Origin: a virus
Reading direction: 5' to 3' (one strand)
Length of the DNA: 64,000 bases
IMG/VR virus record: IMGVR_UViG_3300027971_000028
Location: 1-64,000 of that record
Made by a program: the position numbers and the translations under genes. The notes under the pieces were generated by a model. The model saw only the letters and a list, made by a program, of their open reading frames with translations. It was not told the DNA's origin and ran no database searches. Shown piece by piece: positions 1,534 through 20,266 of the stretch (its first letter is position 1; the number at the start of each line of letters is the position of its first letter).

Positions 1534-2033
1534 AAAAAACATCGCTTCAGGGATTCATTAAATTCGTACAGCCTTAATTCTAACTGTGTATATATCTGGC
1601 GGATCGAGGAGTAAAACTAGTAGAACCGTAAATTGTTTGTAGTGTGCAAATACGGGTTCTTCCTGGAGACTCACGCTCAGAAAATTAAATAAAAGCAGCA
1701 CATCAAGAAGTTGTTCCCATCTTCCTGGCTCGGCGGAGCTGGTGGCTCAGGCGGTGGTGGCGGAGGCGGTGGATCTTCGATCCATCACTTAAAGAAGTTG
1801 TTTGTTTCTACCAGCTCCTCAGGAGCTCTGGATAGCAAAAAGTAAAAAAGCGGCCTGGTACAGCAGCTGTGAGGACAATCTACAGAAGTTGTTTACATCT
1901 CTACCTGGTCAGCTCAACGGGCTTGGCGGCTTGACAGGCCTGATAGGATAGCTTTCTGCAGCACTGCATAAAGTTAAAAACAGAAAATTGTTTAGATGTT
2001 ACTTAGCCGACTAACGGCTTGTTACAGCGATCC

Positions 2034-2063
2034 TTGACAAACGGCTTGAGCCATTGCTAACAT
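2034..2063 (+). promoter_or_regulatory. sigma70-type promoter; probable leaderless whiB transcript
   Basis: TTGACA-N18-TAACAT, with GTG start 7 nt after the -10. Confidence 0.65.
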
Positions 2064-2069
2064 AACGGT

Positions 2070-2471
2070 GTGAACTCAGAACCCGTCTTCAATATCAATG
2101 ATGCATTAATACCGTCTGCCCGTAACTGGTCCTGGCAAGATAAAGCGCTGTGCAAAACTAACGGCGTGGACGTGACCGTGTTCTTTAATGATGACATGCT
2201 TCGCGGTCCTGAGAAGCAGGCACGGGAGAGTGCCGCCAAGAAAATATGTACGGCATGCCCTATCAAGACGGAGTGCTTAGAGCACGCATTAACGGTGCCC
2301 GAGAACTTCGGTGTGTGGGGAGGCTTGACAGAAGAGGAACGGATGGTTATTGTTAAGTTCAAGAGATCAATTGACAGAGCAGAGAAAGCAGGGATTAAAG
2401 CGGATGCTACTTCTTGGGTACATAGCGTACAAAGTGAATCAGATACAGAAACAATTACTACTACCGTCTGA
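2070..2471 (+). CDS. whiB: WhiB-family Fe-S transcription factor
   Basis: WQDKALC...AKKICTACPIKTECLEHAL...FGVWGGLTEEER: four Cys plus the G[IV]WGG signature. Confidence 0.95.
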   Translation: MNSEPVFNINDALIPSARNWSWQDKALCKTNGVDVTVFFNDDMLRGPEKQARESAAKKICTACPIKTECLEHALTVPENFGVWGGLTEEERMVIVKFKRSIDRAEKAGIKADATSWVHSVQSESDTETITTTV

Positions 2472-2623
2472 GTCGGATCAAAGAACCGCTGACACAATAA
2501 ATCGTTGGCTAAACAATTTTGTAGACAAAATAGATCCTGATAGATGTTGCACCCATGATGGTCATGAGAACTATTGTGTCTGCTGTATGAATGAACACGA
2601 GAAATGCCGTGTCCAAGACTGAT

Positions 2624-2653
2624 TTGACAAACGCTTTGTCGTGTGATTATAAT
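2624..2653 (+). promoter_or_regulatory. Consensus sigma70 promoter; leaderless start at 2660
   Basis: TTGACA-N18-TATAAT; in-frame ATG exactly 7 nt downstream. Confidence 0.8.
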
Positions 2654-2659
2654 ATTCCT

Positions 2660-2977
2660 ATGACAAACCAATACAAAGCAGTAAACTCGAAAACCCTGAA
2701 AAGGCTGATCGATACCGCAAAAATGCTCAACTTCAATCAGTATCCTGAGAAGTCGCATAACTTATCTATGAATGGCATCCATGTTTTAAAGATGGTTGTC
2801 CAAGACCACAAAGGTCATACAAATAAAGACATCATTCATCACAGAGCATCTGTCTTGGCTAGTGTTGGTGGAAGTTCTGAACCAATAGAATTCCTACTTG
2901 ACATTAGAGATGAAGACTGGAATAATCTAGTTGATGCCAAAGCAATGGCAGATAGCGCAAGGGAATTAAATGTCTAA
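2660..2977 (+). CDS. Hypothetical protein (start revised from 2591)
   Basis: ATG at the predicted +1 of the promoter at 2624. Confidence 0.7.
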   Translation: MTNQYKAVNSKTLKRLIDTAKMLNFNQYPEKSHNLSMNGIHVLKMVVQDHKGHTNKDIIHHRASVLASVGGSSEPIEFLLDIRDEDWNNLVDAKAMADSARELNV

Positions 2978-3890
2978 AAAAGTTTTACTTATGGTGGTTG
3001 CGATATCAGCAACCCTACTTCCCCTTCAGTCTGCGAGCGCGGTTGGAGAAAAGACTTTAGTAATTATTGACTCAGGCATAAATACAGATTTGGCTTGGGC
3101 TAAAAACTCAGTTGTAGATGAGGCATGCTTCGTTGAGTTTAATAGATGTCCAAATGGATTATCACAAATGACTGGTGCTGGATCAGCAAAAGTAACTCCT
3201 GCTATGACAACTGCTGGTTCATTTAGTCATGGAACTCAAATGGCTTCAGTTGCGGTTGCGGTTGATCCAAATGTAAAAATTGTTTCTATCCGAGTTGCTG
3301 GTATGACTGCTAAGGGCGTTCCTAATCCTTACACAGCCAAAGCAATTTCTTGGGCGTTGGATTATGTGGAAGCAAATAAGGCACGACTTAATGTTGGTGC
3401 GGTTTCTATTTCTCTAGGTAACTCTTACAAATCAACTTCTTGTCCAATAGTTGGAAACCTACAAACACAGATTTCTAACCTAATGGCTTCAGGAGTAGCA
3501 GTTGCTATTGCAGTTGGTAATGGTGGCTCTACCAAAATTGACTACCCTGCTTGTATCCCTGAGGCAATTGCGGTTGGCGCAACTGAGGATAGATATGCCA
3601 TGAAAGAGGTGTCAGGTTGGGTGTATCCAATTATGGCTATCTCTAACTACAACTCTGATGTTGATTATTTCGTAAATGGTAAATACACAGTTTCTGATCT
3701 TTCAGATAATAAAAATGTTTCTTTCGGAACTTCTAACTCAACTGTGGCTTTTGCTACCTATCTAACCAAAAGACTTTCTGCTGGCGAGAACTTAACTGCG
3801 GTTTTGGCTAGCGTTAATGCTTCTCTAGTCAATGCCTACAAAACCACGACACTCTTTTATCCTAAGCAGTTTAACTTGACAAATGGTTAA
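2970..3890 (+). CDS. Secreted subtilisin-like S8 serine protease
   Basis: Signal peptide MSKKVLLMVVAISATLLPLQSASA; catalytic triad IIDSG / SHGTQMAS / GTSNS; oxyanion-hole AVGN. Confidence 0.9.
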   Translation: MSKKVLLMVVAISATLLPLQSASAVGEKTLVIIDSGINTDLAWAKNSVVDEACFVEFNRCPNGLSQMTGAGSAKVTPAMTTAGSFSHGTQMASVAVAVDPNVKIVSIRVAGMTAKGVPNPYTAKAISWALDYVEANKARLNVGAVSISLGNSYKSTSCPIVGNLQTQISNLMASGVAVAIAVGNGGSTKIDYPACIPEAIAVGATEDRYAMKEVSGWVYPIMAISNYNSDVDYFVNGKYTVSDLSDNKNVSFGTSNSTVAFATYLTKRLSAGENLTAVLASVNASLVNAYKTTTLFYPKQFNLTNG

Positions 3891-3903
3891 AAACTGTTAA
3901 GAT
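3876..3903 (+). promoter_or_regulatory. sigma70-type promoter embedded in the 3' end of the subtilase gene
   Basis: TTGACA-N16-TAAGAT. Confidence 0.65.
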
Positions 3904-3929
3904 AAAGACAACTAGAAAGGGGTAGCCAA

Positions 3930-4106
3930 ATGGCTAAGTATCAAATGCTGATTTCTTTCGAGACAGATAAAGAACTTTCATCTGACGAGCAAGATAATTT
4001 AGTAGGGCATGTAGCACCACAAATTGAAGAACCAATTACAAGTGATGGAGATGATGAGGAATACTCAACATCAAACTTACAAATCTCACTAGAGGAGATT
4101 AAGTAA
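3930..4106 (+). CDS. Hypothetical acidic 58-aa protein
   Basis: AAAGGGG SD; hand-read ORF MAKYQMLISF... Confidence 0.7.
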   Translation: MAKYQMLISFETDKELSSDEQDNLVGHVAPQIEEPITSDGDDEEYSTSNLQISLEEIK

Positions 4107-4240
4107 TGGGTAAAGCAGTAATTTGTGAATGCGGTTATCAATTATCTACAAAGGCTAGAACTTGTTCTAACTGTGATGAAATGTTTAACGAGGAATTAGA
4201 AACCTATATTGAAGCAATTGAAACTAGAGGAGATAAGTAA
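4106..4240 (+). CDS. 44-aa zinc-ribbon microprotein
   Basis: MGKAVICECG...CSNCDE; GAGGAG SD; TAATG coupling. Confidence 0.7.
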   Translation: MGKAVICECGYQLSTKARTCSNCDEMFNEELETYIEAIETRGDK

Positions 4241-4395
4241 TGGGTCAAGCAATTTGGCAACATACTATTACACAAGACATGGTCGCTAAGTTAGATGACA
4301 ATCAACTAAGCCTATTCATAGATTCTTTAGAGAACTCTATAGATGAAATATATTCAAACTTTGATGTAGTTTCTACGACAGAAAAGGGGCAATAA
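4240..4395 (+). CDS. Hypothetical 51-aa protein
   Basis: GAGGAG SD; TAATG coupling. Confidence 0.65.
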   Translation: MGQAIWQHTITQDMVAKLDDNQLSLFIDSLENSIDEIYSNFDVVSTTEKGQ

Positions 4396-4399
4396 TAAA

Positions 4400-4786: not shown

Positions 4787-4803
4787 TACTCTTAACTTAC
4801 TTT

Positions 4804-4852
4804 AGGCGTGTCTTTTAAGCCCGTATAGAAATACGGCAAGGGCACGCCTTTT
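4804..4852 (+). terminator. Intrinsic terminator-like nested hairpin
   Basis: AGGCGTGTC/GGCACGCCT stem enclosing CCGTAT/ATACGG, followed by a T-run. Confidence 0.7.
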
Positions 4853-5089
4853 GTATTTTCAAAAATACCCCCCATTCTTCCTAGACAAAAAAATGTAAAC
4901 TAAATCTATACAAGTTGTTTATACACTACTCCGAAAGTTGGAAGACTCCTTAGCAAAAAGTAAAATTAGGCTCAGCGAGGCAAGCAAAAAGTAAAAATTG
5001 CCGCTTTTTATTTAACTGAGCCAGGTGAAGAAGTTATTGTGATGTGGTGCTATTCCGGCGTTTGTCACCTGAACGAGTGGCAAGGGTGC

Positions 5090-5118
5090 TTGACAAAAAG
5101 ATTCGGTTGTTATACGAT
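5090..5118 (+). promoter_or_regulatory. sigma70-type promoter
   Basis: TTGACA-N17-TACGAT. Confidence 0.7.
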
Positions 5119-5208
5119 AAGGCTTCGCACCGCTACTCCGATAGTGAGAACCTAAGTGGGTTAGTCCGCTACTTGCGAACACGGACTACAAAATAATAAG
5201 GGGGAAAT

Positions 5209-7087: not shown

Positions 7088-8140
7088 ATGGACACTCTAA
7101 AAGAAAAATACAAAGAACTAAGTCCTAATCTTTCACCAACTTATTGGGAAATGATTATAGATGTAGCAACGCAAGGAGTAAATGAAAATGCGTCAAAGCA
7201 GTTATCTACCAATGTGCTTCCACAAGGACGCTATGTTGAGAGAGCGATTGGCTCTGACAGAAAAGCACGCAAAACAAAGGCAGATGCTCTAGTGAGTGTT
7301 GAGGCTTTGGGTGGCGAAAATATCTACTTGCGTCCTAATGGTTCTGCTTACCATGCTCGTATATGGGGGCAAAACAAAGATGTAGAAGTTTTACGCAAAG
7401 CAAGAGAAGCAACTAAACAATCAGTTCTAACTGGTGTTGGACAACCAATGTTTGCCATGCTTTATGGAGTTCCCGGAACAGGTAAAACTGCGCTGGTTGA
7501 GGCTTCTTTCGGCGAAGGTGTTCGCACACTACTTGGAAATGGTGATGTAGAAGTTGCCGACTTAATTGGTTCTTATGTCCAAACTCCTAGTGGAAACTTT
7601 GAGTGGATTGACGGCGACCTAGTTAAGGCAGCCGAAAATGGGGAAGTTTATTTCATAGATGAGATTGGTCTGATTGACCCTAAGGTTCTTTCAGTTATTT
7701 ACAATCTTATGGACGGAAAAAGAGAGATAACAATTACTGCTAATCCTGAAAGAGGAACAGTAAAATCTCACCCTGATTTCTATGTAGTTGCCGCAACTAA
7801 TCCAAAGGCTCCGGGCGTAAGACTTAGCGAAGCATTACTATCTCGCTTTGTTGTCCAAGCAGAAATGACAACTGATTGGAACTTGGCTCGTAGTCTAGGA
7901 GTGCCAACACAAATGGTGACTTGCGCACAAAACTTATATCGCAAAGTTCTGAATAAAGAAAGAATAAGTTGGTCGCCACAAATGCGAGAACTTCTAGCAT
8001 TTCGCGACATAGCAACAACTTTCGGAACTGAGTTTGCTATCGCAAACATGATTGCGTCTGCCCCAAATGATGATAGGGCAGTAGTAGCAGATGTTCTAAC
8101 CCGAGCCTATGGGGTAGAAGCAAAGCCTGCCAAAATCTAA
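7088..8140 (+). CDS. MoxR/CbbQ/CobS-like AAA+ ATPase
   Basis: Walker A GVPGTGKT, Walker B YFIDEIG, ATNP sensor, ALLSRF arginine finger. Confidence 0.9.
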   Translation: MDTLKEKYKELSPNLSPTYWEMIIDVATQGVNENASKQLSTNVLPQGRYVERAIGSDRKARKTKADALVSVEALGGENIYLRPNGSAYHARIWGQNKDVEVLRKAREATKQSVLTGVGQPMFAMLYGVPGTGKTALVEASFGEGVRTLLGNGDVEVADLIGSYVQTPSGNFEWIDGDLVKAAENGEVYFIDEIGLIDPKVLSVIYNLMDGKREITITANPERGTVKSHPDFYVVAATNPKAPGVRLSEALLSRFVVQAEMTTDWNLARSLGVPTQMVTCAQNLYRKVLNKERISWSPQMRELLAFRDIATTFGTEFAIANMIASAPNDDRAVVADVLTRAYGVEAKPAKI

Positions 8141-8163
8141 TTTATTAGATTGGCTGGATAAGG

Positions 8164-8204
8164 TGGGGGCGTATTTTTACTCTCTAGGTTAAATACGCTC
8201 TCCC
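8164..8204 (+). terminator. Hairpin between the AAA and VWA genes
   Basis: GCGTATTT/AAATACGC stem. Confidence 0.5.
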
Positions 8205-8212
8205 TTATTAAC

Positions 8213-8241
8213 TTGACATTTAACACCTGATATGGGATAAT
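8213..8241 (+). promoter_or_regulatory. sigma70-type promoter
   Basis: TTGACA-N17-GATAAT. Confidence 0.7.
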
Positions 8242-8266
8242 TTGATTAACAAAGGGGGTAGTAAAA

Positions 8267-10042
8267 ATGGCTCATATTAAAATGAGTGAAACTCGCGCCG
8301 AAGCCACACCTAAAGAGTGGTTAGGAGTTGGTAGAGATATTGGGCAATTAGCAAATAAGTGGTCGCTTCGTGACGACCTTGTTGCGTATGTTGGTCCGGG
8401 TGCTGGTGGTCCTGCGCCTGCGTGCTATAACCCAACAACAGCAGAAGTAGAAGTAAATGTTGATGTCGCTTTCGGAAAAGGAATTACGCCACTAGAGATT
8501 GGTGATATTTCTAATCGCTCTACTCAGTATGAGTTTCCTAAAGCAACTGGCGCAATTATTCATGAAGCCTTTCATGCTCGCTTCTCAGGTTGGTCTATGC
8601 CTAAAGCGTATGAGGAATTAAAAAATGATGAATACAAAGCCTTAATTTTATTAGAGGAAAGTCGTATTGAGTATCAGGGTGTTATTTCTAATCCAAATGC
8701 TCGCGCCTTCCTTCGCGCCTGCGCTATGGAAATTGTTATTGGCGATACAAAAGATATGGAAAATGAAACACAAACACAATCTTTAACTAATCTTGTTGGA
8801 CTTGTTCATGCTCGTATTGACGCTGGTATCTTAGATGAGCATGAAGTAAAAGATGTGACTACAATTATTGAGAAGCAACTTGGTCTTGATGTTGTTTCTA
8901 AACTAAGAGAGGTAGTTCGTAAAGCGCAACTTCATGATAATCACAGGGACGCAACAGAACTTTATCCATTAGCAAAAGAGTGGGCAAAGATTGTTCGTGA
9001 TACTGCTAAAGAGCGTGGAGATGAAAACGCTGGTGAAGGTATGAAAATGCCTAAAGAACTTCTTAAAGCAATCATGGGCGCACTTGGAGAAGCAAGTGGT
9101 TCAGTAGAACTAAATAACTTTGAGGAACTTGCCAACCAAGAACAATCTGAGGATTGGAAAGAGGAAGTTAAGGCTAAGGCTTCTGACGCTAATGAGCAGA
9201 AAGAAAATGAAGTAGTGGCTCAGAAAGTATTCAGTAAGAGTTCCGGTCCGGGTCAATCAAATACTAATAGCACTTTAATTGAGAGCAGAGAACCTACATT
9301 TGAGGAATTGCGTGCTTCTTTAATTATTGGCGAAGCGTTAGAAAAAGCCAAGTATCGTGAGCGAGATGAGATACAAGTTTCTAGTATCGTGCCACCCGGA
9401 CGACTTCGCGCTCGCGCTATTGTCCAAAATACTGCTTATCGTGCTAGAGGACAAATGGCACAAGCAAAACCTTTCCGTAGAACAGTTCGCAAACATACAG
9501 ACGAACCAACTCTTAATGTTGGTGTAATGGTTGATATTTCAGGTTCTATGGGAAGTGCTATGAACCCTATGGCTACAACTGCTTGGGTAATGAGTGAAGC
9601 AGTAAATCGTATTCAGGGCAACTGCGCTATGGTTTATTACGGAAATGATGTGTTCCCAACTTTATCTGCTGGACAAAGATTAGATAAAGTAAATGTTTAT
9701 TCTGCTTCGGACGGAACTGAAAAGTTTCAGAAAGCCTTCCAAGCATTAGACGGCTCATTAAACTTACTTCATGGAACTGGCGCAAGACTTCTAGTAATTG
9801 TTTCTGACGGAGAATACACTCCTGAGGAAAACAAAAGAGCAAGAGAAGTTATGGAAAAATGTAAAGCGTCAGGCGTTGCGGTTTTATGGTTGCCCTTTGA
9901 TGACGGCAGAAGTGCAAAAGATATTGGTGGAGATTATGCCGAGATTGTTCTAGGTATAAATCAACCTGCCGAAACTGCCGAAGTTATTGGTAAGTCAGCG
10001 CAGGCAGTTATGACAAGAATTGGTGAGCGTGAAAGTGCTTAA
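8267..10042 (+). CDS. CobT-like protein: N-terminal HExxH metallopeptidase-like domain plus C-terminal VWA domain
   Basis: IIHEAFH...LLEESRIE; MIDAS motif DISGSM; later IVSDGE. Confidence 0.85.
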   Translation: MAHIKMSETRAEATPKEWLGVGRDIGQLANKWSLRDDLVAYVGPGAGGPAPACYNPTTAEVEVNVDVAFGKGITPLEIGDISNRSTQYEFPKATGAIIHEAFHARFSGWSMPKAYEELKNDEYKALILLEESRIEYQGVISNPNARAFLRACAMEIVIGDTKDMENETQTQSLTNLVGLVHARIDAGILDEHEVKDVTTIIEKQLGLDVVSKLREVVRKAQLHDNHRDATELYPLAKEWAKIVRDTAKERGDENAGEGMKMPKELLKAIMGALGEASGSVELNNFEELANQEQSEDWKEEVKAKASDANEQKENEVVAQKVFSKSSGPGQSNTNSTLIESREPTFEELRASLIIGEALEKAKYRERDEIQVSSIVPPGRLRARAIVQNTAYRARGQMAQAKPFRRTVRKHTDEPTLNVGVMVDISGSMGSAMNPMATTAWVMSEAVNRIQGNCAMVYYGNDVFPTLSAGQRLDKVNVYSASDGTEKFQKAFQALDGSLNLLHGTGARLLVIVSDGEYTPEENKRAREVMEKCKASGVAVLWLPFDDGRSAKDIGGDYAEIVLGINQPAETAEVIGKSAQAVMTRIGERESA

Positions 10043-10129
10043 CCAAAAAGAACGAGTGGAACTCCTACCCCTTTGGGGTTTCACTCTGCTAGTTATTTGC
10101 GGCAGCGGCGAAAGCAAAAAGTAAAAAAT

Positions 10130-10573
10130 ATGGAAAGAGATGAAAGCAAGTTTGTTATTAAATACGCATCTCACATGTTGCCTTCCGTTGCGCATGGCAT
10201 TACAAGATTTGATGCTTGTTTCTATGCTGGCGAAGGTTATATAGCCACAGTTTTATATGAAGGCTTTGCCGTTGATATTTATTGCGACGGAGATACAAAA
10301 ATATATAACCCGAAGACAGAACAATATTACAGAGGCGGTGCGGATTTAATACTTGGTGGCTTTGATACGGATACTAAGTTTCATAAAGCAACTGAGGACG
10401 AGAGCCTAGTTATGGATATGAACTCTTGGTTTGACCTTTACTGCTACGGAGAACACCTTGCTGCGGTAAGCCACATGTTAGATGATGCGATTGGCTCTGC
10501 AAAAGATTATGTTTATCAAGAGTATTTCTGGGCTGAAACACTTCTTGACATGCCTGACATGCTTGACAAATAA
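10130..10573 (+). CDS. Hypothetical protein (start revised from 10073)
   Basis: ATG at 10130 in frame; the region upstream is motif-bearing intergenic DNA. Confidence 0.7.
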   Translation: MERDESKFVIKYASHMLPSVAHGITRFDACFYAGEGYIATVLYEGFAVDIYCDGDTKIYNPKTEQYYRGGADLILGGFDTDTKFHKATEDESLVMDMNSWFDLYCYGEHLAAVSHMLDDAIGSAKDYVYQEYFWAETLLDMPDMLDK

Positions 10574-10591
10574 AGACTATTATGAAATAAT
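10563..10591 (+). promoter_or_regulatory. sigma70-type promoter overlapping a stop codon
   Basis: TTGACA-N17-AATAAT. Confidence 0.65.
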
Positions 10592-10622
10592 ATGTTTAAA
10601 GCGAAAGGGGAAAAAGTAAAAA

Positions 10623-11156
10623 ATGCATACATGTCAGATTATGTTGGTAGAGGCAGATAGCGCAGAGCAGGCTCTGAGTTATGTAAAAGGCACAATTACC
10701 CATGCGGAAACTCCTTACCCCGCTTGGTCTGATTGGCATGGTGGTATTTCTGAAGGACTTGCTGGTCGCTGGTCTGGATTATTTCAGGGCTGGGAAGAGA
10801 ACCAAGATGTTCTTTGCTACACCGAGAATAAAGTTTTAGCAGACGACATTATTAAAGAGTTTGTTTCTTACCGAATAACTGAAGCCAAAAATCTTTGGGA
10901 CGAAATGAAAAAAGGAAATGGGTTTGATGTAGAGAAATCAATCTCTGAATATAATCCTTACGAACAAAGATTTGATGATAGCGGTATGAATATGTGGCGA
11001 CTACAAAGGATTTCCAAGATACTAAATAATGATTGGTGTTCTGATACTGGCGTATATGACTTACAAGAGCATACGGCTAACTTAAAATACTTTAAGGATA
11101 GGCTTGACAAAAATCCTGAAAAACAGTATCTTGTTCCAGTAGACTTTCACTTTTAA
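10623..11156 (+). CDS. Hypothetical protein
   Basis: ORF track; AAAGGGG SD. Confidence 0.75.
   Translation: MHTCQIMLVEADSAEQALSYVKGTITHAETPYPAWSDWHGGISEGLAGRWSGLFQGWEENQDVLCYTENKVLADDIIKEFVSYRITEAKNLWDEMKKGNGFDVEKSISEYNPYEQRFDDSGMNMWRLQRISKILNNDWCSDTGVYDLQEHTANLKYFKDRLDKNPEKQYLVPVDFHF
11104..11132 (+). promoter_or_regulatory. sigma70-type promoter inside a gene 3' end
   Basis: TTGACA-N17-TATCTT. Confidence 0.6.
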
Positions 11157-11167
11157 GACAAGGGGTA

Positions 11168-11529: not shown

Positions 11530-11563
11530 AAGCAAAAAGTAAAAATCAGGTGGTTGTTGCTGC

Positions 11564-11993: not shown

Positions 11994-12009
11994 TAAACTT
12001 CCCACAAAG

Positions 12010-12046
12010 AGAAGATCTGGCTAACGCTGGATCTTCTTTTTTTTTG
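12010..12046 (+). terminator. Intrinsic terminator
   Basis: GAAGATC/GATCTTC stem plus a long T-run. Confidence 0.8.
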
Positions 12047-12164
12047 TAAAAGTTGTTTGGAAGTCTGCGGCCCTGGCTGCTCTGGCACAGCAAAAAGTAA
12101 AAAAAGCACTTGCTTGCCGCTGCCAGGTCCATAAAAATATTTTAGACTTTCCTGACTTTTAGAC

Positions 12165-13174: not shown

Positions 13175-13204
13175 GAAGCCCCGCCAAGTGCGGGGTTTTT
13201 CTTT
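13175..13204 (+). terminator. Intrinsic terminator
   Basis: CCCCGC-caagt-GCGGGG followed by TTTTT. Confidence 0.8.
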
Positions 13205-13308
13205 ATGCGGCTACAGCAAAAAGTAAAAAATTACCAAGATGCCGCTGCTACAGAACTATAAACAATTTGGCTATGTGGGATAGGCAATTAAAAAACAGCG
13301 AGGGGTGC

Positions 13309-14003: not shown

Positions 14004-14226
14004 TATACTTCCAAGCCGAACAGTAATGTTTGTTGGCGATTACTTTACTCTAATGACCACCATTGTCTTAGATGAAAAACTAAGAAATGAGGGCGAAGTT
14101 GATAATGACTTTGCGGTTCGTGTTGCGTCTGTATTCATGAACGAATACTACGGCTTTGATGTAGCGTCAGTTGCTAATAGTATTGGGGTTGTAGATGAAG
14201 ATGGCGCAGAGGTAGAAAATGATTAA
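13996..14226 (+). CDS. Hypothetical protein
   Basis: ORF track; overlaps its neighbours by 8 nt. Confidence 0.7.
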   Translation: MDNILPSRTVMFVGDYFTLMTTIVLDEKLRNEGEVDNDFAVRVASVFMNEYYGFDVASVANSIGVVDEDGAEVEND

Positions 14227-14566
14227 GACTTCCATAGATTTGTTTGATGAAACCTGTAATGCCGTTTCTAAAGGAGAACTAGATAAACAACTAGTTCCCC
14301 TTAAAAAACTTATAGAGGAGCGACTAAGTGTTGTGAGGGTAGATGCGGACATAAAGGATTTTGTAGTTGGAGATAGGATTGTTCTAAATAGTAATTGCGG
14401 AACTAAGTCTTTGATAGGAGATGAAGGAACTGTGGTTGCTATTAGGAGAAGTAAAATCACTATTACTTTTGATAAACCTAAAGGTAGGTTCGCTAGAACA
14501 AACTCACAGGGGGAGATTTACTCTGCCAATGCCGTAGTTCCTATATCCATAGTTGATAAGATTTAA
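14219..14566 (+). CDS. Hypothetical protein with SH3/KOW-like C-terminus
   Basis: FVVGDRIVL...GDEGTVVAIRRSKITITFD. Confidence 0.6.
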   Translation: MIKTSIDLFDETCNAVSKGELDKQLVPLKKLIEERLSVVRVDADIKDFVVGDRIVLNSNCGTKSLIGDEGTVVAIRRSKITITFDKPKGRFARTNSQGEIYSANAVVPISIVDKI

Positions 14567-14610
14567 GAGCGTCTGAGCAAATAAAAAGTAAAAAATCAGG
14601 CTAAACTAAT

Positions 14611-14760: not shown

Positions 14761-15006
14761 ATGGAAATCGTAGATAAGTATTACCACTCCAACGGCTCTG
14801 CCGTTCCATTTATTGCCGCCCTTGTTGATGACCCCGCTGATGGAGATACAAAAATTGTTATTATGTTTGACGAGAGGGACTTTACTGCTGTTCTTTCGCT
14901 AGACTCTCTACTTCGAGATGAGGATATCTCAGCAAGAAACAATGGATATCACGGAGACAAGTATGAAAAACTTAGAGAAGATTTGTGGGATGGGTTTTTA
15001 GACTAA
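14761..15006 (+). CDS. Hypothetical protein
   Basis: ORF track; no SD, possibly leaderless. Confidence 0.7.
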   Translation: MEIVDKYYHSNGSAVPFIAALVDDPADGDTKIVIMFDERDFTAVLSLDSLLRDEDISARNNGYHGDKYEKLREDLWDGFLD

Positions 15007-15038
15007 GCAAAAAGTAAAAAACAATTGGGGAAAAGACT

Positions 15039-15611
15039 ATGACAACTATTGCAGCGATACAGGGTGAGAACTGGGCTGCTATTGGGTATGACTCAAGGCT
15101 AACTGAAGACAATAGCAAGATCTATACGCTGCCTAAAGATAATGGCAAAGTAAATAGAAATGGTCCATACTTAATTGGCGCGGCTGGAGATATGCGTGCC
15201 ATCAACATACTTACACATGTTTTTAAGCCACCTGCGATAAATCCAAACCTTTACGGGGCAAAGTTGGATAAGTTTATTTCTTCAGTCTTTATCCAAGATA
15301 TGAAACACTGTTTCGAGGAGAACTCTTACAGCAAAGATGGAGAGCATGACTCTCAGGTAATGGTTGCGGTTAATGGAACTATCTACGAGATTGGTGATGA
15401 CTTCTCTTGGGCGCATGATGAAACAGGCGTATATGCCATAGGTTCAGGGGGCGGATACGCAATGGGAGCAATGCTGGCAAGCCTAGACAGCAAAAAGAAA
15501 ACCTTAGGCACAGCCAAAAATGTCATTAGACAAGCAATAACTATCGCTGCCAAGTTAGATCCAAGCACAGGGTTGCCGATCAATATCGCGGTGCAGCACT
15601 TCGGATCTTAA
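15039..15611 (+). CDS. HslV/proteasome-beta-like Ntn-hydrolase peptidase
   Basis: MTTIAAI...DSRLT N-terminal nucleophile Thr; LIGAAGD; AIGSGG.YA.GA. Confidence 0.8.
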   Translation: MTTIAAIQGENWAAIGYDSRLTEDNSKIYTLPKDNGKVNRNGPYLIGAAGDMRAINILTHVFKPPAINPNLYGAKLDKFISSVFIQDMKHCFEENSYSKDGEHDSQVMVAVNGTIYEIGDDFSWAHDETGVYAIGSGGGYAMGAMLASLDSKKKTLGTAKNVIRQAITIAAKLDPSTGLPINIAVQHFGS

Positions 15612-15695
15612 AAAGTTGTTTTGATCTGGGCCTACTAGCGGCTGAAGATATATTTTTTTTACTTTTTGCTAAGAAGAAACACCTGAGCATCATAC

Positions 15696-15749: not shown

Positions 15750-16058
15750 ATGGCGAACTTCGACCTAGTAAAAGAAAGAGTTGGCGATGCTAAGGCTATC
15801 GCTTGGGATAGTTGCCACAAGATTTACTTGCTAATGGACGATGAGCAGGTAGAAACAATGCGTGGCTACGAGTATGACCCACTAATTAGAAACAAAGAAC
15901 TAACACCTGAAGAAATGCTAACAACCTTGCAAAACTGGTATTCAAATTCTTGCGGGCTTAGATTTATTCAAGCGGTTACTACTAACCACATAGATCCAAA
16001 CGCTGGCTTCGAAATCCTAATAGGACAGGGTGAACATGAAGAATACGAGGAAGACTAA
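15750..16058 (+). CDS. Conserved phage hypothetical protein (WDSCHKIY...SCGLRFI)
   Basis: ORF track; AGGGGG SD. Confidence 0.75.
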   Translation: MANFDLVKERVGDAKAIAWDSCHKIYLLMDDEQVETMRGYEYDPLIRNKELTPEEMLTTLQNWYSNSCGLRFIQAVTTNHIDPNAGFEILIGQGEHEEYEED

Positions 16059-16164: not shown

Positions 16165-16194
16165 AACTCCTTGCCTTACGGCAGGGAGTTTTTT
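16165..16194 (+). terminator. Intrinsic terminator
   Basis: AACTCCTTGCC-ttac-GGCAGGGAGTT followed by TTTT. Confidence 0.8.
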
Positions 16195-16417
16195 ATTGGA
16201 AAAACCTTTACATTTTTTTCATCAAGGCGGTATGCACATCCAAAAGTTGTTTGTAAATCTGGATCTACAGCAGCATGGTCATAGCAAAAAGTAAAAAAAT
16301 ACAGCAGCCTGGCTATTTGCGGCTTCGTAAGTTGTTTATAGATTTCAAAGCGGGCTCAAAGTGAGCGTAGGAAGTAAGCGCTTTTTCTGAAGGACAACTG
16401 TGGAAATTGTTGCCTTC

Positions 16418-16668: not shown

Positions 16669-16691
16669 ACAAAAAGAAAGGGTGGAACTAA

Positions 16692-17222: not shown

Positions 17223-17386
17223 TGCCTAGATACGAGATTATCTTTGAGAAGAACAAGACTAAGGTCATACGGGCATCTTCGCTAGAGATTGCTGAAGAAA
17301 GAGCGACCAAGATGGAAGTAGATGGTTGGGCAGTTATGCGTATCTACGAGCAAAAGGGGCAACACGCCGAAAGTCAGGAAAGTTGA
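17222..17386 (+). CDS. Hypothetical 54-aa protein
   Basis: TAATG coupling; hand-read ORF. Confidence 0.65.
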   Translation: MPRYEIIFEKNKTKVIRASSLEIAEERATKMEVDGWAVMRIYEQKGQHAESQES

Positions 17387-17410
17387 TTTTGTCAGGAAAG
17401 TCTGTATAAT
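17383..17410 (+). promoter_or_regulatory. Promoter with two GTCAGGAAAG boxes (17373, 17391)
   Basis: TTGATT-N16-TATAAT. Confidence 0.65.
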
Positions 17411-17452
17411 TATCTTATTGGCAAATTGTCAATAGGACTGAAGGGGGTCTAT

Positions 17453-17608
17453 ATGAAAACGAAGGCAAAGTATATTAGACGCAGAGTGGTAGTAGCACTT
17501 GTGTTGATTGGTCTTATTGTTTGGGCTAACAACGCAACAACACCTGCCGAGTGTAAAGTGCCAACAGAGCAGATGAACCAATTCTGCTTAGATTTGTTAT
17601 ACCCATGA
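17453..17608 (+). CDS. Small membrane-anchored protein (start revised from 17426)
   Basis: AAGGGGG SD; basic N-terminus plus hydrophobic VVVALVLIGLIVW. Confidence 0.7.
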   Translation: MKTKAKYIRRRVVVALVLIGLIVWANNATTPAECKVPTEQMNQFCLDLLYP

Positions 17609-17817
17609 ATATAGAACCAAAGACACCTAGTCCTGCTACCACGGCACAAAGTTTTGCAAGGGTGGAACTAATCAAGCGCCACCGCGCTGAGTATGACGAA
17701 ATCTATCGAGCAAAAATGATTGAGTTAGGTGGCACGCCAAAGCCTACTACTCAAGAAAAGATAGAACTGTTAAAACAAGAAATAGAAAAACTGCAATCAG
17801 AATTGGCTTATAACTAA
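17605..17817 (+). CDS. Hypothetical protein
   Basis: ORF track; ATGA overlap. Confidence 0.7.
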   Translation: MNIEPKTPSPATTAQSFARVELIKRHRAEYDEIYRAKMIELGGTPKPTTQEKIELLKQEIEKLQSELAYN

Positions 17818-18104
17818 TGTCTGATACGCATAATCACCTTGAACAACTAACTGAGAAATGGAACGAAGTCCCTAACTGGACAGTTCTTGAGTATTGGAAA
17901 GGAAAAGGAAAAGAAAGTAATAAGTTCTATTTTAAGATTTATGAAGATAGAACAGGAGAGCATGCACCGTTCTATTGCTTAGAGGAAAACAAAGAAAGTA
18001 GGACTTTTATCTACTGCGCCACGAGGACAAAAGACAGAAAAGGGTATATCTTTCACCTAGAGGAAATAGATATAGCCCCACAACTAGTAGGAAGTGAGAA
18101 ATAA
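17817..18104 (+). CDS. Hypothetical protein
   Basis: ORF track; TAATG coupling. Confidence 0.7.
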   Translation: MSDTHNHLEQLTEKWNEVPNWTVLEYWKGKGKESNKFYFKIYEDRTGEHAPFYCLEENKESRTFIYCATRTKDRKGYIFHLEEIDIAPQLVGSEK

Positions 18105-18105
18105 T

Positions 18106-18252
18106 ATGATACTTGACACGGGAACAATGGTCGCTATTATTATTGCGCTTGCATGTTCATGCTTCGTAATGGTGCTTTCTATCGTAAAATATGGTGTTTT
18201 ATTTAGAGAGAACCAAGAACTAACCGAGAAATTAAGGAAAGGTAAAAAGTAA
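18106..18252 (+). CDS. 48-aa single-pass membrane protein
   Basis: MVAIIIALACSCFVMVLSIV hydrophobic helix. Confidence 0.6.
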   Translation: MILDTGTMVAIIIALACSCFVMVLSIVKYGVLFRENQELTEKLRKGKK

Positions 18253-18254
18253 AA

Positions 18255-18431
18255 ATGAACCAATTTCCAGAGTGCGACACCTTTAGGTGTCAGTTTGAGT
18301 GGCTTGACTTGTCAAGCAACTTCTTTGATATCTCAGTTTACACTCCTGCCGCACTTGCGGTGTTGTTTGGAGTTTTAATTTACAGAGCCGTTAAGAGAAA
18401 ACAGGGATCTGAGTTTAATGGCAAAAAGTAA
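18255..18431 (+). CDS. 58-aa single-pass membrane protein
   Basis: PAALAVLFGVLIY followed by a basic tail. Confidence 0.6.
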   Translation: MNQFPECDTFRCQFEWLDLSSNFFDISVYTPAALAVLFGVLIYRAVKRKQGSEFNGKK

Positions 18432-18618
18432 AAAACTAGAAAGTCAGGCTGCAGAACTATATACATCTGGTCTGGCTATCGATAGTGTTGCGGTTGAACT
18501 AGGAGTTTGTTATAGAACTGCTAGGAAGGCTATCCGTAATGGTGGAGTGCAACTAAGAGATCCCTCTTCTCGCTTGAGAGGTCGGACTAAACCTAACAAC
18601 AAGAAAGGCAAGAAATGA
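18418..18618 (+). CDS. Small helix-turn-helix DNA-binding protein (HTH_58-like)
   Basis: AAELYTSGLAIDSVAVELGVCYRTARKAIRNGGVQLR. Confidence 0.8.
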   Translation: MAKSKKLESQAAELYTSGLAIDSVAVELGVCYRTARKAIRNGGVQLRDPSSRLRGRTKPNNKKGKK

Positions 18619-18767
18619 ACAACTTAAACATAGTATGGACTGCTGTAGGAACAATAGTCTTAGGACTTGCGACCCTACTGTCAGCATGGCAGGGTGACAT
18701 GACCTACACGGTGGCATTTGGTCTTGCATCAATTGCTTCGGCTACTTTGTCTAGCAGAGAGAAGTAA
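18615..18767 (+). CDS. 50-aa two-helix membrane protein (holin-like candidate)
   Basis: Two hydrophobic segments; charged C-terminus. Confidence 0.5.
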   Translation: MNNLNIVWTAVGTIVLGLATLLSAWQGDMTYTVAFGLASIASATLSSREK

Positions 18768-18790
18768 GCCAGAAGATAGTTTTCAGCAGA

Positions 18791-18828
18791 AGCCCCCTAG
18801 AACTTTGGTTGGGACTAGGGGGTTTTTT
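18791..18828 (+). terminator. Intrinsic terminator
   Basis: CCCCCTAG/CTAGGGGG followed by TTTTTT. Confidence 0.8.
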
Positions 18829-18845
18829 GCTGTCTCGGCGTGTCT

Positions 18846-18874
18846 TTGACTATTTGTCAGGAAGGTGGTAGTAT
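18846..18874 (+). promoter_or_regulatory. sigma70-type promoter with GTCAGGAAGGTG in the spacer
   Basis: TTGACT-N17-TAGTAT. Confidence 0.7.
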
Positions 18875-18897
18875 TTGTCCTAAAGGGGGGTATTTAG

Positions 18898-19008
18898 ATG
18901 AAAACCATGAAAAAGCAAATCATTTATATTTCTTGCTGGAAATGTGGCAAATCTATGGCTGTAGCGGAGAAAGACTACCGAAATGGGCTCATATGTGAGA
19001 GTTGCTGA
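18898..19008 (+). CDS. 36-aa zinc-ribbon microprotein
   Basis: CWKC...CESC; AAAGGGGG SD. Confidence 0.65.
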   Translation: MKTMKKQIIYISCWKCGKSMAVAEKDYRNGLICESC

Positions 19009-19184
19009 CCCAAAAACCTACTTTCCTGCACTATTTGTGGTAACCTGATACCTATGAAGCACCAAACGACTTACGACCTACGGACGCATTAGAAAGGTAG
19101 TTGTAATACCTGTCTCCCCAAAGCGGGTGGCACGGGTTGGCTAGTTAAGCAACCTTGTCTCTGTCCCCTAACAAAGGAAAATCA

Positions 19185-19787
19185 ATGCACAAACCCAGTA
19201 ATAGAGTTGTCGAACAAATAGCAAGCATATTAATTGCTGTTCTATCTGTGTCTATCTTCTCTACTTATATTCAATCGTCTGTCGCACAAACGACAACGCA
19301 AACAAAAGATGCACTAAAGATCCAGATTGACAAAGAAATAGAACAGCATAAAGTAAAAATTAAGCAGTTAGAGTTGAAGAAGTTCTCTGAGCAGAAGACT
19401 CCTTTCACGGATGAAGAGTTAGCCAAGATGCTAAGTGCCATTGGTTTTGAAGGTAGAGCACTTAAAGTAGCGTGGGCAGTAGTGAAGAAAGAGTCAAATG
19501 GACGCCCTCTAGCCTTTAATGACAATGTTAAAACAGGAGATCACTCATACGGCATGTTCCAAATCAACATGATCGGTGGATTAGGAGTAGCCCGTCGAGA
19601 TAAGTATGATCTTAAATCTAATACGGATCTGTTTGACCCAGTTGTTAATGCCCAGATTGCATATCACATGAGCAACGAAGGAAGTGATTGGTCATCATGG
19701 GGGGTAGGTAAGTTCCCTTATAATGGTGCTACCGACCAAGCCATGTATAACTTATGGATTACCAAGTTCCCAGAAGGAGCAATCTAG
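19185..19787 (+). CDS. Membrane-anchored or secreted lytic transglycosylase (SLT/lysozyme-like; start revised from 19155)
   Basis: N-terminal hydrophobic helix; AVVKKES catalytic Glu; SYGMFQIN; DLFDPVVNAQIAY. Confidence 0.85.
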   Translation: MHKPSNRVVEQIASILIAVLSVSIFSTYIQSSVAQTTTQTKDALKIQIDKEIEQHKVKIKQLELKKFSEQKTPFTDEELAKMLSAIGFEGRALKVAWAVVKKESNGRPLAFNDNVKTGDHSYGMFQINMIGGLGVARRDKYDLKSNTDLFDPVVNAQIAYHMSNEGSDWSSWGVGKFPYNGATDQAMYNLWITKFPEGAI

Positions 19788-20266
19788 TGAGCGATGAATT
19801 AAATCAAGAAGCCCCAGTCAGTTGGGAAGCCCCTGCTGAGGCTGAAGCCCCTGCGGTTGTAGAAGTTGTTTCTACTCCAGCAGAGCCAGAACCAGTTGTA
19901 GTTCCAGAACCAGAGCCAAAGCCAGTTGTTGAAGTTGTTGCTACTCCAGAGCCTGCGGCTGTAGTTGAAACACCTGCGGCTGAAGAAGCAAAAAGTAAAA
20001 AACCAGCAGCAGCCAGCTATCAAGATGGCGAAGTTGTTGTGTTGTCTAAGTTAGTTCTTAGCAGCAAAGAGAGAAACTCTAGGTCAGTTGCTTTAGTTCA
20101 AGAGCAATTGATATCAAAAGGATATGCCGATGCCGATATGGATAAACGCGGTTGGTATAAAGAGAATACCCAGAAGGCATTGTTAGAGTTCTGCGGCAGC
20201 GAAGGTATTAACGAAGCTACATTAAAAAAGCTATTCGCTAATACAAAGGTAGCAATAGCCTACTAA
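19787..20266 (+). CDS. Pro/Glu/Ala-rich linker plus peptidoglycan-binding-like domain (GTG start overlapping the TAG)
   Basis: GAAGGAG SD; VALVQEQLISKGY...DKRGWYKENTQKALLEF resembles PG_binding_1. Confidence 0.65.
   Translation: MSDELNQEAPVSWEAPAEAEAPAVVEVVSTPAEPEPVVVPEPEPKPVVEVVATPEPAAVVETPAAEEAKSKKPAAASYQDGEVVVLSKLVLSSKERNSRSVALVQEQLISKGYADADMDKRGWYKENTQKALLEFCGSEGINEATLKKLFANTKVAIAY

Follow-up and report, generated by a model that had tools for sequence, protein, structure and literature searches.

A strand-biased 14-mer punctuating the early region of a freshwater actinophage: a possible operator array

The window analyzed here is a stretch of 64,000 nucleotides, positions 1 to 64,000 of the 133,336-bp virus record IMGVR_UViG_3300027971_000028. 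Its source is an uncultured freshwater actinobacterial phage (freshwater actinophage) that shares 77% portal identity with phage DSL-LC01 and that we take to be lytic. The early region of this genome is built of promoter-gene cassettes, in which promoter-like sites are found 17 times in the sense direction versus once in the antisense direction over 21 kb. Dispersed through it is a 14-mer, AGCAAAAAGTAAAA (here M1; consensus, tAGCAAAAAGTAAAAA; 11-nt core, AAAAAGTAAAA), with 11 exact copies in the window against 0.01 expected, all of them within positions 1834-20000, 10 on the plus strand and 1 on the minus strand (15657-15670). The initial annotation had reported these 11 copies as confined to the early region, and a search of the whole record bore this out: the exact motif is absent from the other 113 kb. 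The core occurs 16 times from genome position 132551 through window position 20000, the copies beyond the 11 exact ones being four variants and one just before the contig end; an extra match to the core at 72.8 kb is likely due to chance. A second element, M2 (AAGTTGTTT), has 13 occurrences in the window, where 1.3 would be expected. The features on which the analysis draws are as follows.

1795..1803, plus strand: M2; the M1 at 1834 is 39 nt on
1834..1847, plus strand: exact M1, flanked by M2 on both sides, in the long noncoding region preceding the first early gene (WhiB-like, 2070-2471)
1886..1894, plus strand: M2, 38 nt past the end of M1 1834-1847
4912..4920, plus strand: M2; the M1 at 4952 is 40 nt on
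4952..4965, plus strand: exact M1, first of a tandem pair, after a terminator-like hairpin (4806-4852) and M2 4912
4983..4996, plus strand: exact M1, second of the tandem pair; promoter-like site at 5090
10113..10126, plus strand: exact M1; ATG 10130 (147-aa ORF) 3 nt downstream
10608..10621, plus strand: M1 variant GGGAAAAAGTAAAA; promoter-like site 10563-10591 upstream, ATG 10623 1 nt on
11531..11544, plus strand: exact M1, immediately after a stop codon; TTGACT of a promoter-like site (11564) 19 nt on
12050..12058, plus strand: M2; the M1 at 12089 is 39 nt on
12089..12102, plus strand: exact M1, in the order terminator (12006-12041), M2 12050, M1, promoter-like site (12165)
13215..13228, plus strand: exact M1, in the order hairpin terminator (13179-13195), M1, reversed M2 variant, promoter-like site (13309)
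13256..13268, minus strand: reversed M2 variant (CTATAAACAATTT on the plus strand), 27 nt past M1 13215-13228
14580..14593, plus strand: M1 variant AATAAAAAGTAAAA; the stop of ORF 14219-14566 is 14 nt before
15006..15019, plus strand: exact M1, following the stop codon of ORF 14761-15006 and preceding the Shine-Dalgarno sequence and ATG (15039) of an HslV-like gene
15613..15621, plus strand: M2, neighbor of the reversed M1 at 15657
15657..15670, minus strand: exact M1, the sole reversed copy, 46 nt past the HslV-like gene
16244..16252, plus strand: M2; the M1 at 16283 is 39 nt on
16283..16296, plus strand: exact M1, with M2 at 16244 and 16329 and a terminator (16165-16190) upstream
16329..16337, plus strand: M2 (AAGTTGTTTATAG), 32 nt past M1 16283-16296
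18241..18254, plus strand: M1 variant GGTAAAAAGTAAAA, giving K-K-stop to ORF 18106-18252 and abutting ATG 18255
18418..18618, plus strand: 66-aa ORF starting MAKSKK (M1-like), with weak HTH matches below the Pfam cut-offs
18420..18433, plus strand: M1 variant GGCAAAAAGTAAAA, giving K-K-stop to ORF 18255-18431 and, in the small HTH-like ORF 18418-18618, making up codons 2-5 (AKSK)
19987..20000, plus strand: exact M1 within ORF 19754-20266, read as A-K-S-K in the sole open frame
Genome 114941..115564, minus strand, outside the window: two-HTH protein

Iteron-like repeats adjoin the first M1 module. M1 is an asymmetric, multicopy motif that lacks the dyad symmetry typical of recombinase core sites and is itself neither a promoter nor a stem-loop, and no conserved hairpin forms around it. 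The four M2-M1 pairings in the window from which a nearly fixed distance had been proposed (39, 40, 39, and 39 nt, start to start) are correct, as is the inverted partner at 15613/15657; however, over 107 distinct sites from several relatives the spacing is only loose, with M2 starting 36 to 50 nt upstream of the M1 start or 41 to 62 nt beyond that start. M2 can thus be found on both sides of M1, about 30 bp off, and its downstream copies occur in both orientations. The flanks are strongly enriched in GCNGC: the 80-nt flanks of the 11 exact copies hold 24 such words, where 1.9 to 3.1 would be expected, with a peak 11 to 15 nt from either M1 end, and the words on opposite sides of M1 are not mutually complementary. 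In the longer spacers, these elements make up a module of roughly 100 bp in the order M2, GCNGC, M1, GCNGC, M2.

The corresponding region of relatives, down to 73% portal identity, carries 11 to 26 copies of M1: all 26 copies in relative G001 lie at 20.3-48.3 kb, and 21 of the 23 matches (with at most one mismatch) in G003 lie at 6.2-31.8 kb. The relatives that lack M1 form a single portal clade. The orthologue of the copy at 15006..15019 is retained in G001, G003, and L148 despite diverged flanks, and the reversed copy after the HslV-like gene is retained in four sublineages (close relatives, L148, G001, and L170). In G003, a sense copy directly follows the HslV-like gene, and the one reversed copy read in its M1 region lies about 570 nt further past it. 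The coding copy at 19987..20000 reads GCA AAA AGT AAA, with synonymous sites invariant in five diverged lineages in which the neighboring residues differ. On comparison of sequences, the orthologous sites and the coding copy suggest that selection acts on the M1 nucleotides themselves, which we count as support for the interpretation developed below.

In about 91% of copies, the orientation of M1 is that of local transcription, a rule that holds within the inverted gene block of L165, L187, and L191. That orientation tracks gene direction even there is easier to reconcile with transcription than with the polarity of replication or packaging, and it weighs against the proposal, which we rate as quite improbable, that M1 serves some other strand-specific DNA transaction, such as His-Me/HNH nicking, a replication fork barrier, or a packaging or ejection signal. 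An exact and strand-biased motif would suit such a transaction, as would the iteron-like repeats beside the first module, and tblastn with the ORF of an HNH endonuclease (genome 97406-97885) gave matches in G001 and G003 and none in G002, G005, and DSL-LC01; but no link joins this endonuclease to M1, and HNH endonuclease genes are commonly mobile. Equally improbable, in our estimate, is an antisense network in which reversed copies would be transcribed into anti-M1 RNA that pairs with sense copies, leading to silencing or marking for cleavage. Such pairing would account for the exact conservation of M1, its sense bias, and the conserved coding and reversed copies, and the reversed copy would fall, without a terminator in between, in the 3' untranslated region of the HslV-like mRNA. 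However, several reversed copies of the relatives sit behind terminators, the arrangement after the HslV-like gene of G003 runs counter to the proposal, no RNA family matched the region, and M2 and GCNGC would be left unexplained.

With respect to genes, 17 of 71 copies (24%) abut a start codon at 0 to 5 nt, nearly always ATG, with a gap of 0 nt in 11 of the 17 and of no more than 4 nt in any, and 12 of 71 (17%) lie 6 to 30 nt upstream of one, against roughly 1 to 4 start-associated copies expected on a rough estimate. The other 59% are not near any start codon and are found in spacers upstream of sigma-A-like promoters. M1 further has stop codons in two frames and terminates several upstream ORFs. 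In a sister clade, a Shine-Dalgarno-type motif, GGGGTAAAAA(ATG), replaces M1 at some shared gene junctions, including those before the "MVLDTGT" gene and the primase/helicase-like gene, and the two motifs are mutually exclusive across 21 loci. The initial annotation did not include the association with start codons, the orientation rule, the copy within a coding sequence, or this replacement, and its placement of most copies between a terminator and a strong promoter proves overstated: both features flank 4 of the 11 copies, a promoter-like site follows within about 110 nt in 7 of the 11, and the copies at 10113, 15006, and 19987 are beside a start codon or inside a gene. Among the 42 non-start copies of three genomes, a terminator-like hairpin precedes 10 by no more than 130 nt (5% at random, an about fivefold excess), a strict promoter-like site follows 13 within 160 nt (10.6% at random), and none lies just downstream (within 160 nt) of a promoter-like site.

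These positions bear on the main rival reading, to which we assign a lesser but appreciable chance, namely, that M1 is an RNA-level start-associated (SAS-like) signal, a leader or intercistronic element at work in the mRNA. Such an element might promote Shine-Dalgarno-independent or coupled initiation, or a phage factor might bind or cut it and thereby control the translation or stability of early messages, as T4 RegA and RegB do on early mRNAs. The copies that abut or closely precede start codons, the stops that end upstream ORFs, the sense bias, and the mutual exclusion with GGGGTAAAAA(ATG) at the same junctions all argue for it, and the SAS motifs of Cluster K and EF phages are likewise genome restricted and of single orientation. 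Against it stand the majority of copies away from any start codon; being upstream of promoters and partly behind terminators, these would be transcribed only by read-through. Moreover, in a manual alignment M1 pairs poorly with the anti-Shine-Dalgarno sequence, the HslV-like gene has a separate GGGG Shine-Dalgarno sequence besides M1, a reversed copy is conserved, M2 occurs in both orientations, and no phage ribosomal protein S21 was found.

The organization in cassettes also invites a reading of the M1/M2 modules as linkers for homologous or site-specific exchange that shuffle promoter-led cassettes, for which the PeSLs of T4-like phages offer a precedent (PMC4122927). The alignments of relatives end exactly at the M1 edge at 15671 and break just past the M1/M2 module of 13215..13228 (13240-13280), and the gene at 15750-16058 sits behind a different M1 module in G006. 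However, about 5 of about 14 breakpoint regions against four close relatives touch M1, and roughly one-third of early junctions carry it; hence, there is no enrichment, and the cassette shuffling suggested initially is a side effect at most. Recombination would not explain the in-gene and start-abutting copies or the conservation of orthologous sites, M1 lacks recombinase-type dyad symmetry, and homologues of the candidate serine recombinase (ORF 106187-106837) are also found in M1-lacking relatives. We therefore hold this reading to be improbable, if marginally less so than the antisense and DNA transaction proposals. An indel at 10610-11160 that seemed to end at an M1-like copy was discarded, as it joins two AAGGGG Shine-Dalgarno sequences.

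By analogy, M1 resembles repeat motifs of cultured actinobacteriophages whose own role is unexplained. SAS and M1 are both asymmetric repeats of the 13-bp class that occur in 10 to 19 copies among nonstructural genes only, in nearly a single orientation, with a preference for ATG, an upstream stop codon sometimes within the motif, and a second, weaker element just upstream in about half of the cases; SAS has no established function to date (PMC3203893, PMC7302621, PMC11373665). Virtually all SAS copies, however, lie within a few bases of a start codon (typically 3 to 9 bp), whereas 24% of M1 copies abut one, and SAS contains an AGGAG Shine-Dalgarno core that M1 lacks. Likewise, ESAS is an inverted repeat containing a promoter, whereas M2 is a single 9- to 13-mer about 30 bp off and is not a promoter. 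Cluster EC Microbacterium phages have an 18-bp asymmetric intergenic motif, to which repeats in Clusters EG, EI, and O are related; like M1, these are cluster-specific conserved repeats that occupy small intergenic gaps in a common orientation and are known from genome sequence only, with no role assigned (PMC7302621). They differ from M1 in sequence and in lying a fixed 14 to 30 bp from start codons, and no M2- or GCNGC-like flanking module has been described for them. The PeSLs, like M1, are composite conserved sequences that border small cassettes of early genes in plastic regions and coincide with the ends of some indels (PMC2839356, PMC4122927), but a PeSL is itself a promoter plus stem-loop, which M1 is not, and breakpoints are not enriched at M1.

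The closest parallel for a DNA-level role is with the stoperators of Cluster A mycobacteriophages (L5 gp71-type repressor sites), which, like M1, are asymmetric 13- to 16-bp sequences present in more than 10 near-identical copies in short intergenic spaces, with an orientation that follows transcription (PMC9283540). The two sequences are unrelated, and stoperators extend over the whole genome of temperate phages, where they function in immunity, whereas M1 occupies only about 21 kb. Classical stoperators serve lysogeny, which, for a phage taken to be lytic, counts against an operator reading. Nonetheless, of the three roles raised initially, the operator/stoperator role is the best supported, the motif being asymmetric, exact, multicopy, intergenic, transcription oriented, and conserved in relatives. 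The best reading of M1 is thus as a sequence-specific recognition site that punctuates the promoter-dense nonstructural (early) region, and we tentatively favor, at somewhat less than even probability, a stoperator-like array of DNA operators for a phage regulator. DNA is favored over RNA by M2 lying about 30 bp (three helical turns) off on either side, with downstream copies in both orientations, and by the noncomplementary GCNGC words, the lack of a conserved hairpin, and the conserved reversed copy. Two observations weigh against DNA binding, in that neither the exact abutment of M1 and ATG nor the GGGGTAAAAA of the sister clade at the same junctions has a ready explanation there; both point to a role in translation start.

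DNA action, repression, and the identity of the binder are what we infer for M1. In such an operator array, a phage-encoded regulator would bind M1 on double-stranded DNA, at long-spacer modules upstream of the next sigma-A-type promoter, often behind a terminator, and at tight junctions between a stop codon and the following start codon. Once made, it would occupy the M1 sites, such that early transcription units might be switched off or insulated, with an effect that could depend on orientation, as with Cluster A stoperators. The best candidate for this regulator is the two-HTH protein, of about 205 aa with a flexible linker, in which one HTH domain might hold M1 and the other M2; we propose that separate linked domains could account for the loose spacing and orientation of M2. 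Its predicted structure has two four-helix HTH domains joined by a linker of about 35 aa (pLDDT 82.5), comparable in size and layout to the stoperator binder, a small two-domain protein of about 183 residues that binds as a monomer, although the predicted fold matches a Cluster A2 repressor (7tz1) only weakly (Z 4.2). The C-terminal domain weakly resembles the DNA-binding domains of ParB/KorB (Z 5.2-5.6), and Z scores below 6 are common for small helical domains.

By locus, the two-HTH family is present in 13 M1-bearing loci, missing within the locus from 8 others that bear M1 (one of which, G000, has a distal copy), and present in 0 of 17 M1-lacking loci; in G002 and DSL-LC01, which are complete genomes without M1, the matches are marginal only. 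This association is confounded by descent because all relatives without M1 fall into one portal clade, and a 58-aa membrane protein unrelated to the two-HTH protein co-occurs with M1 equally well. A secondary candidate binder is the 66-aa ORF at 18418..18618, homologues of which are also found in M1-lacking relatives. A paralog of the two-HTH protein is encoded inside the M1 region of G001 and L187, where an M1 copy lies 20 nt before its ATG, and the same paralog is present in L165, L191, and G003.

The 14-mer AGCAAAAAGTAAAA (M1) occurs in 11 exact copies in this phage genome against an expectation of 0.01, and these are confined to positions 1834-20000, just as the initial annotation had it for the window, with none in the remainder of the genome. 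When 76 distinct instances from this phage and its relatives are aligned, the consensus lengthens to tAGCAAAAAGTAAAAA, a nonpalindromic sequence with the invariant core AAAAAGTAAAA; counting five variants together with the exact copies, the core is found 16 times, from genome position 132551 to window position 20000. Two features reported for its surroundings likewise hold: the second, 9-nt motif, AAGTTGTTT (M2), occurs 13 times (1.3 expected) and is paired with M1 where it had been placed, and the flanks carry 24 GCNGC words where 2 to 3 are expected, an approximately tenfold enrichment. A scan of IMG/VR with the bare 14-mer retrieved single chance matches only. M1 is a real element, strongly selected and specific to one lineage.

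The record of 133,336 bp, of which the window is the first 64 kb, is rated complete by CheckV. Its first 100 bases (window 1-100) are found again at 132578, within the terminal stretch 132578-133336, while the first 200 do not recur exactly; the contig ends therefore overlap, and the start coordinate is arbitrary. This overlap points to circular permutation or terminal redundancy of the genome, which IMG/VR classes as linear. The portal protein shares 77% identity with its counterpart in the lake phage "Actinomycetia phage DSL-LC01" (metagenome-assembled) and 58 to 64% with those of large Microbacterium phages. The G+C content is about 41%, there are three WhiB-like genes, and we take the host group to be low-GC freshwater Actinobacteria. 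The landmarks are as follows.

Window 2070-2471, plus strand: WhiB-like gene
Genome 66740-66943: WhiB-like gene
Genome 67779-67976: WhiB-like gene
Window, from about 21-22 kb: head module, with the portal gene at 22458

Past the M1/M2 array and, at 2034, a promoter close to consensus, the first gene is the WhiB-like one at 2070-2471; a minus-strand ORF of 233 aa at 2057-2758 is apparently spurious, the WhiB-like protein being encoded on the plus strand there. Besides small ORFs, the first 21 kb code for an ATPase/CobT-like pair, an HslV-like peptidase, and a phosphatase. Strict sigma-A-like promoter matches number 17 in the sense and 1 in the antisense direction within 1-21 kb, versus 14 in total over the other 112 kb. 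The 700-bp noncoding stretch that precedes the first early gene contains an iteron-like block (1368-1533), in which tandem copies of CAACATTCC are opposed to copies of GGAATGTTG and followed by three copies of AGGGGGTATTG, perhaps marking an origin or a packaging site. Farther along, M2-like units form a loosely periodic series (1630, 1708, 1795, 1886, and 1985, within 1630-2000), in which M1 stands at 1834 and a degenerate M1-like sequence, GCATAAAGTTAAAAA, at 1966.

M1 is oriented with the local genes in about 64 of 70 copies in this phage and the related genomes G001 and G003, and the rule holds even inside an oppositely oriented gene block in the relatives' loci L165, L187, and L191. The 71 core sites fall into three positional classes. 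In 17 of the 71, M1 lies 0 to 5 nt from a start codon (0 nt in 11 and no more than 4 nt in any), which is nearly always ATG, and several upstream ORFs terminate at a TAA or TAG within M1. A further 12 have the start codon 6 to 30 nt downstream, mostly with a separate GGGG-type Shine-Dalgarno sequence between. The remaining class (42/71) has no near start codon and occupies longer spacers, where a strict promoter-like site follows within 160 nt in 13 of 42 (10.6% at random) and precedes within 160 nt in none of the 42, and a terminator-like hairpin stands within 130 nt upstream in 10 of 42 (5% at random). In this class about 30 bp separates M1 from an M2 before or after it, and the M2 copies downstream occur in either orientation; over 107 sites, 67 occurrences of M2 fall within 90 nt of M1. 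The GCNGC words peak 11 to 15 nt from either end of M1. Two adjacent small membrane-protein genes in the window (18106-18431) owe their shared ending, ...GKK-stop, to an M1-like sequence that forms their last codons.

Several more specific identities were examined and set aside. Within 60 nt on each side of M1 in the 76 distinct instances, only positions -1 (T) and +14/+15 (A) are conserved, and no partner is found at a fixed distance, as a two-part promoter (-35/-10 or MotA box) would have. The GCNGC words on the two sides are not complementary and thus do not form a paired stem; folding z-scores are inconsistent and place M1 in no fixed structure; and neither Rfam matches above noise nor tRNAs were recovered. 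A mini-ORF running from a TTG in M2 to a stop codon in M1 is open in this phage and broken in its relatives, the frame relation at a potential programmed -1 frameshift (AAA-AAG) differs between orthologues, and M1 lies anywhere from 7 to more than 100 nt from the -35 element, unlike an UP element or a WhiB7-like AT-hook site.

A portal-based search yielded 598 related contigs, of which 80 loci were kept. M1 copies are syntenic in close relatives, and the identical 14-mer or its core is present in distant ones (portal identity of 73 to 83%). The copies keep to one region of 21 to 28 kb, and structural and other modules are free of them. In G001, 19 copies are exact and 7 have one mismatch, and all lie at 20.3-48.3 kb, directly upstream of the portal gene; the 23 matches of G003, in which the first three bases are variable, have at most one mismatch, and 21 lie at 6.2-31.8 kb. 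No comparable repeat is found in the cultured relative Microbacterium phage Pumpernickel. Three individual copies are particularly informative. The one between the stop codon of the ORF at 14761-15006 and the HslV-like gene is kept in G001, G003, and the locus L148, with differing noncoding bases around it. Another lies within the ORF at 19754-20266, in the only frame of M1 that is free of stops, and reads GCA AAA AGT AAA (A-K-S-K) in five lineages, while neighboring residues vary. A reversed copy 3' of the HslV-like gene is kept in four sublineages. The retention of all three shows selection on the nucleotides themselves. At 15006-15670, a sense M1 precedes the HslV-like gene and a reversed M1 follows it, an inverted pair kept in several sublineages. 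That M1 copies constitute an antisense pairing network is very improbable, as is a nicking or other DNA site.

The relatives that lack M1 form one well-supported portal clade; DSL-LC01 falls outside both groups, and the long-branched locus L156 is of unresolved position. Five loci of this sister clade (L154, L166, L182, L183, and L193) have 4 to 8 copies of GGGGTAAAAA(A)ATG, mostly 0 to 14 nt from start codons, in which GGGGTAAAAA unites a Shine-Dalgarno sequence with an embedded TAA and a spacer rich in A. None of 21 loci has both M1 and GGGGTAAAAA, and the two share junctions, namely, those before a small "MVLDTGT..." gene and before the homologue of the DSL-LC01 "primase/helicase." Before the HslV-like gene, M1-lacking phages have TAGGGGTAAAAAAttATG, where M1-bearing ones have a stop codon, M1, 7 to 11 nt, a Shine-Dalgarno sequence, and ATG. 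These shared junctions indicate that M1 is positionally related to a translation-start junction; it is without the former Shine-Dalgarno core and has spread to sites lacking a start codon. It is conceivable, if improbable, that in one clade the early-gene GGGGTAAAAA-ATG junction was replaced wholesale by a phage-private signal of 14 to 16 nt, read by a phage factor or by its own antisense copy. Were this so, the phage would own an "address label" that switches the whole early gene set on or off and acts at translation starts and transcription-unit borders alike.

In L182 (1-10000) the GGGGTAAAAA(A)ATG motif has a longer form of about 23 nt, (C/G)ATATATAGAAGAGGGGTAAAAAA, that resembles a -10 element with a short leader, and a second repeated box, CAAAGTGCAGGAAGGT, is present in L182, L154, and L193. 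In the equivalent region of the published relative DSL-LC01, an extended -10 promoter-like motif, TCTAAAGATGTTATAAT, recurs, and DSL-LC01 and the relative G002 share a repeated SAS-like ribosome-binding motif, ACGACGAAAGG, extended in the former to ACGACGAAAGGACAA. At 23500-43400 of DSL-LC01 (L205), the promoter-like core CTAAAGATGTTATA occurs in 16 copies and its variant CTAAAGTTGTTATA in 6 more, and the SAS-like motif ACGACGAAAGGACA occurs in 12.

Known classes of repeat invite comparison. Like M1, the stoperators of Cluster A phages are short asymmetric sites in many near-identical copies whose orientation correlates with the direction of transcription. However, stoperators are spread genome-wide over early and late operons of temperate phages with an integrase and an immunity cassette, whereas M1 keeps to a single region; and they are bound by the immunity repressor, which blocks elongation in one orientation, where for M1 there is a candidate two-HTH protein. 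The reading that we place first, tentatively, is a stoperator-like array of DNA operators through which a putative phage regulator would switch off or insulate early transcription units. Rather unlikely, but ranked next, is an RNA-level start-associated signal akin to SAS. SAS repeats resemble M1 in being limited to the nonstructural part of the genome and in their single orientation. In contrast to M1, with 42 of 71 sites not near a start, virtually all of their copies lie a few bases (typically 3-9 bp) from a start codon and contain a Shine-Dalgarno core at the ribosome-binding site; M1 has no GGAG/GGGG core, and the HslV-like gene has its Shine-Dalgarno sequence separately after M1. It is the GGGGTAAAAA motif of the sister clade that shares the core and position of SAS. 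Some SAS have a second conserved element, ESAS, just upstream, to which M2 may correspond in part: M2 is frequent near M1 but stands on either side of it and is not a promoter-holding inverted repeat. PeSL, which in itself comprises an early promoter and a terminator stem-loop, is again unlike M1, which has no conserved hairpin or fixed-distance partner.

Of the proteins that might read M1, the strongest contender is a family of two-HTH proteins, each about 205 aa long.

Genome 114941-115564, minus strand: two-HTH protein of this phage
G001 46466-47011, minus strand: family member
G003 7912-8439, plus strand: family member

In an AlphaFold model of the protein (pLDDT 82.5), some 35 residues of linker connect two four-helix HTH domains. 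Its C-terminal domain resembles the DNA-binding domains of ParB/KorB (Z scores of 5.2 to 5.6), the fold match to a Cluster A2 repressor is weak (Z score of 4.2), and some homologues give Sigma70_r4 or XRE-type HTH matches. Every M1-bearing lineage examined has a member of the family, as against 0 of 17 M1-lacking loci, and complete M1-lacking genomes gave marginal matches only; since the M1-lacking phages are a single clade, this co-occurrence is a lead rather than a test. Phyletic profiling for a binder is confounded by the same clade, and a 58-aa ORF coding for a small membrane protein co-occurs equally well (12/12 M1-bearing versus 0/9 M1-lacking loci). In G001 and L187 the M1 region includes, among its inverted genes, a paralog with M1 20 nt before the ATG, and the same paralog is present in L165, L191, and G003. 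Such a second family member, in an inverted block just upstream of the head module, is found in some genomes, and the family is common in freshwater viral contigs. Among other potential readers, the product of a 66-aa ORF (18418-18618) has weak HTH matches and begins with MAKSKK, encoded by an M1-like sequence, and its homologues are also found in M1-lacking phages. A whole-genome search found ribosomal protein S21 to be absent. M1 as a promoter for a phage RNA polymerase was discarded: no polymerase was matched among the large ORFs scanned, nor does the annotation of DSL-LC01 list one.

The proposal that the elements are recombination sites shuffling early-gene cassettes was examined by setting the early region against those of four close relatives. 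Breakpoint regions number about 14, of which about 5 touch an M1 copy; M1 is found at roughly one-third of junctions, the same proportion, so there is no enrichment. Two breaks do fall exactly at the edge of M1 or its module (at 15671 and just past the M1/M2 module at 13240-13280), and in the related genome G006 the gene at 15750-16058 stands behind a different M1 module; an indel at 10610-11160, however, joins two AAGGGG sequences. At a PeSL-type border, the indels and replacements that distinguish close relatives would have their end points on the motif. Exchange at conserved M1 modules does occur but looks like a by-product, and a recombination linker as the function of M1 is highly doubtful; we rank it with antisense pairing and nicking, below the operator array and the SAS-like RNA signal. 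The annotation of DSL-LC01, the closest cultured relative, lists one small "recombinase family protein," with no homologue at that position in this phage.

Because M1 departs from stoperators in not being spread genome-wide, and from SAS in having many copies away from start codons and no Shine-Dalgarno core, we regard it as a variant of the cluster-specific repeats of actinobacteriophages. Short exact strand-specific repeats of this kind (SAS/ESAS and the motifs of Clusters EC, EG, and O) have been known for more than a decade and are as a class still unexplained; M1 brings them to the abundant, uncultured actinophages of low-GC freshwater hosts. It offers three informative contrasts, namely, one motif at both start codons and transcription-unit borders, a defined three-part module (M2, GCNGC, and M1), and a plain Shine-Dalgarno-type motif at the same junctions in a sister clade. 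These, together with the short list of candidate binders, make the choice between DNA operator and RNA signal directly testable. M1 is also a practical marker by which the lineage's early region can be recognized in metagenomes. Elsewhere in the genome, a perfect 12-bp tandem repeat, GGAATCTCTGTA, occurs in at least nine copies at 104309-104420, and dense coding repeats of the collagen-like Gly-X-Y type (GGTGCAACTGGT and similar) are found on the minus strand at 82500-91800 and about 116500-116900.
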